DNA of 64,000 bases, taken from NCBI RefSeq assembly GCF_024700885.2, contig NZ_CP117016.1. One strand, written 5' to 3'. The notes under the pieces were generated by a model. The model was given only the letters and a program-made list of their open reading frames with translations, did no database searches and had not been told where the DNA came from. Shown here in pieces: positions 5,499-5,950 of this stretch (its first letter is position 1; the number at the start of each line of letters is the position of its first letter). The stretch comes from Escherichia coli (GTDB lineage Bacteria > Pseudomonadota > Gammaproteobacteria > Enterobacterales > Enterobacteriaceae). A program made the position numbers and the translations under genes.

Positions 5499-5950
5499 AT
5501 ATTGATAACCGCGCAGATAATGCTCATGTGAGTAAAACAATTGCAGCGATGGTTTTAATCCGGCTGAAAATCGATGAGACGTTTTCTGAAGGCCGGGGCG
5601 ACGCGCAGGGATGCGCGGCGAGGGCGCGTCTTACAGGGATGTTACCTCGCGCCCGTACCCGATAGCCGTAAGAAATAAGTCGAATGTACCGCGTAGCGGC
5701 GATTTTGTGCCAAAAGCCTGGGTCGCCAGGGTGGTGGCGACTGAGCCACCCTGGCACGTTCACCAGCAAAATAGTGACAAAGTAGCTATAATCTGGAAGT
5801 GAACGTAACATTTGCCTTAGTGGCATATTTCACCTTCAAATACCCTCTCCCCATTACCCGCACATTTTAACAATCTATCTTTCGCCCCACATTCATAAAC
5901 ATCCGCTATTATTGATTCCCAGCTTAATCATCACCTGATGAACAAAAATA

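Follow-up and report, generated by a model that had tools for sequence, protein, structure and literature searches.

In the window, a 64,000-nt stretch of Escherichia coli DNA (contig NZ_CP117016.1, assembly GCF_024700885.2), the spacer between proX and ygaY contains two inverted repeats that had been proposed as separate hairpins. Here, we find that both belong to a single structured repeat, GC-rich, intergenic and ~360 bp long, which sequence comparison identifies as a divergent member of the TRIP1 family (~78 % identity over the core) at a new locus. Analysis of 50 representative copies shows that the sequence of the element is under constraint to form, as a single strand, a defined structure of multiple helices. 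With regard to its role, we see about an even chance that the unit, if it has an effect at all, acts at the DNA level by folding as single-stranded DNA (ssDNA), and that it is probably a dispersed passenger and not a regulator of the proU operon.

Using blastn, the element matched the copies between lysO and aqpZ with 77-83 % identity over 54-64 % of the query, and parts of the query matched other intergenic sites (tauA-mmuM, yegH-asmA, lysO-aqpZ) at 78-84 %. As the lysO-aqpZ copy is TRIP1a, the family could be identified as TRIP1. This repeat, first described by Rudd (1999), has five catalogued loci (aqpZ-ybjE, putP-ycdN, yohI-yohG, alx-sstT and copA-ybaP), a length of 146-273 bp, a GC content of 62-65 % and a predicted 'double-Y' RNA fold of unknown function (Li et al., 2024, PMC10888264). 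The spacers proX-ygaY, tauA-mmuM and yegH-asmA are all outside of these five loci. TRIP1a and TRIP1c are the same sequences as the replication risk sequences (RRS) RRS-lysO and RRS-dusC (Pham et al., 2023, 2024; 2026 preprint). Relatives of the family were detected by blastn in 5425 of 5426 complete E. coli genomes, at a median of 3 and up to 10 places per genome, and the window holds a single copy. The closest relatives of this copy are found in Enterobacter (83-87 % identity) and not in E. coli (78-79 %). A covariance model built from Enterobacteriaceae 5' domains only (R1, alignment A6) scored the 5' domain in the window with 159.7 bits at 5560-5717 and also matched a deletion variant of TRIP1a.

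The element is specific to a minority of strains. While the spacer spans 452 bp in the window, it is 191 bp long in K-12, where the equivalent position is 2.808 Mb. The alignment of both holds up to the proX stop codon and resumes at ~5859, enclosing ~360 bp in the window and ~100 bp in K-12. With coverage of at least 80 % of window positions 5480-5960 as the criterion for presence, the allele was found at proX-ygaY in 543 of the 5426 genomes (~10 %); by blastn, 512 genomes carry it at 99 % identity or more and 38 at 95-99 %. One strain with a fully identical allele (100 %) is E. coli 1190 (NZ_CP023386.1). K-12 and ~90 % of E. coli have no counterpart of the element at this site, and none of 120 foreign loci checked for the same location had ProX or YgaY as neighbours.

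The K-12 allele is instead a repetitive extragenic palindromic (REP) sequence of the bacterial interspersed mosaic element (BIME) type. It matches the REP-derived model naRNA4 with 72.2 bits (cut-off 59.5) and recurs at 40 or more places per genome. The original prediction had suggested REP-like repeats and a comparison with the REP/BIME consensus and with K-12. This comparison gave no naRNA4 match in window positions 4500-7000, so that the idea of a dispersed repeat holds, but the family is TRIP1/RRS and not REP/BIME. The element might alternatively be of the REP/BIME type or encode a small protein, as suggested by its GC-rich, palindromic, intergenic character and by two open reading frames (ORFs) running across it, one of 100 aa on the minus strand (5524-5826) and one of 63 aa on the plus strand (5611-5802). 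Both possibilities can practically be dismissed, being refuted by the naRNA4, Pfam and indel tests: ORFs spanning the element had no Pfam match above cut-off, and the reading frames are not conserved, as indels among copies are not multiples of three and indels of 1-2 nt break every frame. The placement of the two repeats in non-coding DNA between proX and ygaY was correct.

The repeats themselves fared differently. The first one, GACGCGC/GCGCGTC with 17 nt in between, is present exactly as claimed at 5600-5606/5624-5630, but this pairing is not the conserved one: it joins the arms of two different hairpins and is kept in only 4 of the 50 copies. For the second one, the perfect 10-bp stem GCCAGGGTGG/CCACCCTGGC was found at 5725-5734/5746-5755, whereas the loop has 11 nt instead of 12 and the hairpin ends at 5755 instead of 5756; a pattern search with a 12-nt spacer returned no match. 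In 200 dinucleotide shuffles of the spacer, a perfect inverted repeat of at least 7 bp is expected by chance (148 shuffles), a 10-bp repeat is uncommon (8 shuffles) and it is rare to see five repeats of 7 bp or more (shuffle mean 1.27; 2 shuffles reached five).

To evaluate the fold, the 50 representative copies (alignment A5) were analysed with RNAalifold and pair counts, which resulted in a consensus with 74 pairs, distributed over 15 helices. These pairs were 89.0 % paired, compared to 36-45 % after sliding the partners by one to three columns. Changes on both sides were present in 44 pairs (19-29 in the slid controls) and in 378 cells (43-129 in the slid controls), a contrast that is somewhat inflated, since the consensus structure was derived from the same sequences. 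None of 500 shuffles reached any of the pairing or covariation measures. Compensatory changes were found in the nested closing helices (5554-5597/5657-5721), in hairpin A (6 of 9 pairs; 93 % paired) and in the long-range stem (4 of 7 pairs; 96 % paired), the latter one reading GCGCTCC/GGAGCGC in TRIP1a-type copies. What is conserved is, in spirit, more than the repeat-family membership to which the original prediction might have come down: fold and loops are kept across genera and in other gammaproteobacterial orders.

Hairpins A and B share the family loop consensus CANGGAYG. The invariance of loop A is partly forced by the search pattern, whereas loop B was left unconstrained by it and nevertheless kept C/A/G/G/A/G in 49-50 of the 50 copies; hairpin B matches the motif ACARGGAUGU of the CsrA SELEX type (systematic evolution of ligands by exponential enrichment). 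Strict conservation extends to unpaired nucleotides, namely the CANGGAYG loops, GAGGG, ACCCGA and AUAAG. At the 3' end, the window copy stops in a lone CCCTCTCCCC, which full Enterobacter units use as first arm in a CCCTCTCCC..GGGAGAGGG hairpin; lacking the second arm, the unit in the window is thus truncated.

A 7-bp hairpin, GTCGCCA/TGGCGAC (5722-5728/5735-5741), competes with the 5' arm of the 10-bp stem. Only 22 of the 50 copies keep this alternative with no more than one mismatch, and two-state pairing of the region 5722-5741 is possible. The inverted repeat 5530-5544/5546-5560 was rejected as a conserved helix, with 47 % of cells paired.

Folded as RNA, the element reached -113.1 kcal/mol (z -3.3) on the plus and -97.1 kcal/mol (z -2.8) on the minus strand in comparison to shuffles. 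With DNA parameters, the energies were -60.6 kcal/mol for the sense strand (z -6.3 against mononucleotide shuffles) and -53.3 kcal/mol for the antisense strand, both below all 50 window tiles of the same length (tile minimum -51.2 kcal/mol). G-U cells outnumber A-C cells by 121 to 40, with more than half of the G-U cells coming from one outer helix, and the sense strand is the more stable one in 102 of 106 copies. For these two reasons, it is apparently the strand with the GGA loops that is under constraint.

A DNA-level role is suggested by the RRS, which were described as 222-bp repeats located 650 kb on either side of dif and flanking Ter (Pham et al., 2023, 2024; 2026 preprint). Their sense strand carries the G-quadruplex (G4) tract GGGGGTGCAGGGGGCGGCGG, serves as lagging-strand template and blocks Pol I, II and IV in vitro; wherever inserted, RRS give rise to RecA/SSB-bound lagging-strand gaps of up to 2 kb (Pham et al.). 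In single-molecule assays, the complementary RRS-C strand, which has no G4, also caused gaps, with a lower efficiency, in ~66 % of encounters. The window element belongs to the same repeat family and shares the helices of the RRS, among them the hairpin overlapping the G4 tract, and both of its strands are predicted to fold stably as ssDNA. By analogy, unwinding of the duplex would allow the strand exposed as lagging-strand template, in this copy the C-rich and weaker complement, to fold, and the folded strand could stall lagging-strand synthesis and leave a transient post-replication gap.

Several observations weigh against such a role. The tract considered the key feature by the RRS authors is missing, as the site homologous to GGGGGTGCAGGGGGCGGCGG reads GGGTCGCCAGGGTGGTGGCG in the window and contains no G-quadruplex tract. 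The G4Hunter maximum of the window copy is 1.08 and falls elsewhere than the homologous site, compared to 1.84 at the tract of TRIP1a; half of the family scores ~1.0. The GC skew of the window plus strand is -0.029 over 63 kb and the gene order equals that of the K-12 plus strand at 2.81 Mb in the left replichore. [quoted passage not shown] By K-12 gene orientation, the same holds true for the tauA-mmuM and yegH-asmA copies. The window copy is ~1.2 Mb away from dif, the position of which is partly established knowledge, and neither marks a Ter boundary nor forms a pair around dif. It is also the least stable of four copies compared (-61/-53 versus -82/-79 kcal/mol for RRS). Using the local GC skew of the flanks, a noisy proxy for replication orientation, we observed no bias towards the RRS orientation in the family (41 versus 56 overall) or among G4-bearing copies (9 versus 21). 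Finally, a model in which any stable structure suffices leaves the CANGGAYG loops, GAGGG, ACCCGA and AUAAG unexplained, which lends some weight to a reading as RNA- or protein-recognition elements (for CsrA or another factor). With the G4 absent and the weaker strand exposed, we expect an RRS-like effect of the window copy to be weak at most. Rather than regulating proU, the copy is probably a passenger that was dispersed or spread horizontally.

The breadth of the family was assessed by a pattern scan of one genome per species, which yielded at least 120 loci. Among the matches listed are Escherichia, Enterobacter, Klebsiella, Citrobacter, Kluyvera, Atlantibacter, Pluralibacter, Pseudescherichia, Lelliottia, Leclercia and Pseudocitrobacter, together with copies in metagenome-assembled genomes (MAGs) of one Lysobacterales and one Chromatiales member and three chance matches; 106 full copies fell into 52 clusters at 92 % identity. 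One Enterobacter asburiae assembly holds at least 16 copies. The tauA-mmuM copy of E. coli is at least 92 % identical to, and clusters with, copies from Enterobacter and Lelliottia, near-identical copies occur at unrelated loci, and contigs break at copies. There was no match in the phage collection and the plasmid collection contained matches in chromosome-like records only, thus giving no evidence for a phage or plasmid vector. One of the plasmids, pMTY11352_3 of E. coli (NZ_CP134387.1, 88 kb), carries a chromosomal poxB-hcr-hcp-lysO-aqpZ-ybjD block including a TRIP1a variant that lacks the two hairpins (L007:3984-4062).

In Enterobacter, the repeated unit comprises ~560 bp and is flanked by the CCCTCTCCC..GGGAGAGGG hairpins. 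Units at three Enterobacter loci additionally have on their flanks a common bidirectional terminator-like hairpin, AAAACGGCAAC..GTTGCCGTTTT, that shows a compensatory change, and the organisation of the full units is overall mosaic and BIME-like (loci L089-L097, L091:4366-4391, L094 and L112). Terminal inverted repeats or target duplications could not be defined by eye in near-identical Enterobacter units, in which REP-like hairpins make a mosaic of the ends. We also saw no associated transposase.

Loss of the hairpin pair through internal deletion was seen repeatedly, namely in TRIP1b, in the lysO-aqpZ variant L007 and in the yegH-asmA copy of K-12, which fits a structure hazardous for replication. 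The K-12 copy has lost the leader and both GGA hairpins by a deletion of 178 bp, bounded by the short direct repeats TACCCAAT and TACCCGAT, while the 3' hairpin GCCAGGGTGG..CCACCCTGGC is kept and followed by a REP (L004:3487-3759 versus L003:2905-3355). K-12 thus holds an unrecognised 5'-truncated copy of the TRIP1 subfamily found in the window. A ~75-nt insertion (CAAAATTGCCGGGAGCAATTTTGGACAGCGC..GCCCCAGGGATGGGGC..) with its own hairpin carrying a CAGGGATG loop is nested in the TRIP1 core at three loci (L026:3237-3561, minus; L113:1306-1630, plus; L066:6621-6945, minus) and may represent a second, smaller repeat family with a common loop motif.

These data also bear on the idea of an inert passenger, a selfish or hitch-hiking repeat that spread by copying, recombination or horizontal transfer and has no effect at proX-ygaY. 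The fold would then be kept only for the sake of propagation, for example for recognition of ssDNA by a transposase-like enzyme. The presence in only ~10 % of E. coli, the variable copy number (1-10 for E. coli, at least 16 for Enterobacter), the near-identical copies at unrelated loci, the closer relationship of the window copy to Enterobacter than to E. coli copies, the avoidance of promoter spacers, as known for miniature inverted-repeat transposable elements (MITEs) and REPs, and the embedding of units among REP-like hairpins all agree with it. On the other hand, neither terminal inverted repeats with target-site duplications nor a transposase were found, phage records contain no copy and plasmid records only chromosome-like ones, and the two full K-12 copies have measured effects and conserved positions. 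We consider complete inertness unlikely, though by no means far-fetched.

The 5' domain is related to the TwoAYGGAY RNA motif (Rfam RF01731, clan CL00106) from gut metagenomes (Weinberg et al., 2010). This relationship is based on the matching architecture, a bridging sequence from Lysobacterales and the scores of model R1. Scanning with Rfam models, window positions 5569-5697 matched TwoAYGGAY with 28.2 bits (E 0.12), which is below the gathering threshold of 43 and was the only match in the region, and other enterobacterial copies gave sub-threshold matches of 29-31.5 bits as well. In the Lysobacterales locus L076, a TRIP1-type copy (4276-4431, minus strand) adjoins an inverted copy (4521-4643, plus strand; region 4514-4661) that passes the cut-off (48.8 bits versus 43, E 2e-5). 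Model R1 assigned 76 bits to the Lysobacterales copy, 62 bits to the Chromatiales copy and 25.8 bits to the Rfam-positive L076 copy (E ~7e-5, a rough value). Common to both elements are the closing helix, two adjacent A-N-GGA-Y hairpins with a purine linker of 2 nt between them, and a long outer stem. In contrast to the motif, the loops in the window read AGGGAU in both hairpins, with G in place of Y, and TRIP1 has in addition the small hairpin, the 3' hairpin and the long-range stem. Across the 50 copies, loop position 2 is U in 25 (loop A) and 8 (loop B), while GGA is invariant. Judged by title and abstract, none of the 7 papers listed, out of 12 that contain the term TwoAYGGAY, seems to concern TRIP1 or RRS, and the link is apparently unreported.

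The sense strand of the window element is co-oriented with proX and no intrinsic terminator lies in between; therefore, a sense RNA could arise as the 3' end of proU. As part of the proVWX mRNA, its CANGGAYG loops might bind a CsrA dimer or another protein and function as decoy, sponge or 3' stabiliser of the proU mRNA. The high-affinity consensus of CsrA/RsmE, (A/U)CANGGANG(U/A) or RUACARGGAUGU, a string which occurs in papers on Rsm, is matched by both loops (5606-5613 and 5634-5641), which are 28 nt apart. The conservation of loop B independent of the search pattern, the excess of G-U over A-C and the conserved unpaired junction nucleotides, typical of functional RNAs, point in the same direction, and the related TwoAYGGAY motif has itself been proposed as a CsrA-binding small RNA (PMC4333381).

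The transcriptional context, however, argues against this RNA-level function. A consensus sigma-70 scan revealed no promoter-like sequence at window positions 5350-6050, including the 5' leader 5499-5553, at the Enterobacter unit L091 or at TRIP1a (L005). Likewise, a stem followed by a T-run was found neither at 5350-6050 (0 sites on either strand) nor at L091 or L005. A palindrome resembling a UvrY/GacA box upstream of the core was also considered, but inspection yielded only the half-site-like TGTGAG or CTTACA. The spacers harbouring copies are convergent in 32 cases, codirectional in 18 (++) and 17 (--) cases and divergent in 2 cases. Promoter spacers are thus avoided and the orientation is random, so that read-through would make antisense as often as sense RNA. 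In the gene table of an E. coli CsrA CLIP-seq study (crosslinking and immunoprecipitation with sequencing), dusC and ybjE, which are beside TRIP1c and TRIP1a, are unbound, a weak point, as intergenic or antisense peaks are perhaps not tabulated. Moreover, two GGA sites in loops compare with 9-22 in CsrC and CsrB. All in all, we regard a function of the sense RNA as rather unlikely. A small RNA had been another option of the original prediction; the strong covariation of base pairs agrees with it, but promoter and terminator were lacking at all three copies scanned.

The original prediction had further offered a terminator or attenuator for proU, considered here as an intrinsic one. The element does follow directly 3' of the proX stop codon and contains GC-rich stems, but none of these is followed by a T-run, K-12 and ~90 % of the strains do not have the element and carry a REP there, as is the case for most E. 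coli, and the same element is found beside unrelated genes in both orientations. A role in terminating or attenuating proU is hence very improbable; ssDNA folding of a TRIP1 unit is the reading we favour. The parts of the unit and the neighbouring genes are summarised in Table 1.

Table 1. Features of the TRIP1/RRS-family unit in the proX-ygaY spacer and adjacent genes (positions refer to the window).
Feature	Position	Strand	Details	Basis
Whole strain-specific allele, TRIP1/RRS-family unit in the spacer	5499-5858	+		K-12 alignment, genome counts
5' leader	5499-5553	+	degenerate compared to full-length Enterobacter leaders (..AGTAATTTTTTAACC..hairpin..AAAATGAATGGCTTACAGCG)	alignments
5' domain, TwoAYGGAY-like	5554-5721	+	nested closing helices around a junction carrying hairpins A and B and a small hairpin
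5' domain, outer helices	5554-5558/5717-5721, 5560-5564/5708-5712, 5566-5573/5699-5706	+		RNAalifold, pair counts
5' domain, inner helices	5574-5580/5678-5684, 5583-5587/5670-5674, 5591-5597/5657-5666	+		RNAalifold, pair counts
Hairpin A	5599-5620	+	stem 5599-5607/5612-5620; loop CAGGGATG at 5606-5613	kept in 38/50 copies
Hairpin B	5622-5654	+	loop CAGGGATG at 5634-5641	helices 10 and 11
GACGCGC-N17-GCGCGTC	5600-5630	+	alternative, non-conserved pairing	kept in 4/50 copies
Small hairpin CCGC-GUA-GCGG	5688-5698	+	stacked on helix P1	4 pairs, 100 % paired, 3 compensatory (helix 12)
3' hairpin	5724-5755	+	10-bp perfect stem, 11-nt loop	helices 13-14, 7/10 pairs compensatory
Long-range stem ACGTTCAC/GTGAACGT	5756-5763/5799-5806	+	around 35 variable nt	kept in 46/50 copies
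3' tail	5807-5858	+	conserved CATATT; lone CCCTCTCCCC at 5843-5852	alignments
proW	3384-4448	+	gene in the window
proX	ends 5498	+	gene in the window
ygaY	5951-7135	+	gene in the window, intact MFS gene

The element core comprises ~250-280 bp. Downstream of the unit, ygaY is an intact ORF for a 394-aa transporter of the major facilitator superfamily (MFS) in the window, while K-12 ygaY (b2681) is annotated as a pseudogene. At two of the other loci, a JUMPstart RNA motif upstream of wza scored above the Rfam threshold (L003:841-879, minus; L006:4873-4911, plus), which is an ordinary known feature.

In a broader and more speculative view, which we hold to be distinctly unlikely at present, TRIP1, RRS and TwoAYGGAY would form one widespread class with the CANGGAYG hairpin pair of the core as a specific protein-recognition module; sense transcripts would bind CsrA, or the loops would serve as a handle of the copying machinery. 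If true, CsrA would at this locus bind the 3' end of the proU mRNA, which is induced osmotically, and the repeats, possibly including the RRS phenotypes, would be tied to the Csr network. Regardless of this, one false lead is removed, as the element is neither a proU terminator nor a REP, and it is unlikely to be a new small-RNA gene. RRS were described as two conserved G-quadruplex repeats flanking Ter (Pham et al.). Our data suggest that RRS are members of a far larger family, which is polymorphic, apparently mobile and also represented in Lysobacterales and Chromatiales, and in which the G-quadruplex tract is confined to one subfamily and the multi-helix fold with two CANGGAYG loops is the conserved part. 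Natural variants that have no G4, the opposite replication orientation and a position away from Ter are ready-made controls for the trigger of RRS gaps and for an RNA/CsrA layer.

Among known systems, the element resembles CsrB, CsrC, McaS and the Rsm RNAs in presenting GGA in hexaloops closed by C-G and in matching the CsrA/RsmE consensus. In contrast to these CsrA-sequestering RNAs, it has two such loops only, no UvrY/GacA-type promoter or terminator was found, and it is part of a repeat family instead of a single-copy gene. With REP/BIME elements it shares the dispersed, GC-rich, palindromic and polymorphic nature and the location at gene 3' ends, and K-12 has one of them at proX-ygaY; the sequences are unrelated, the units of ~35 bp stand against a core of ~270 bp, and naRNA4 does not match the window element. 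The catalogued TRIP1 repeats are homologous over the entire core; they are likewise GC-rich and intergenic, lie 3' of gene ends, have a predicted multi-helix fold, vary in presence and exist as internal-deletion variants. The window copy differs from them by a lower GC content of the core (55-57 % versus 62-65 %) and by forming, with the copies at tauA-mmuM and yegH-asmA, a divergent subfamily nearer to the copies of Enterobacter.

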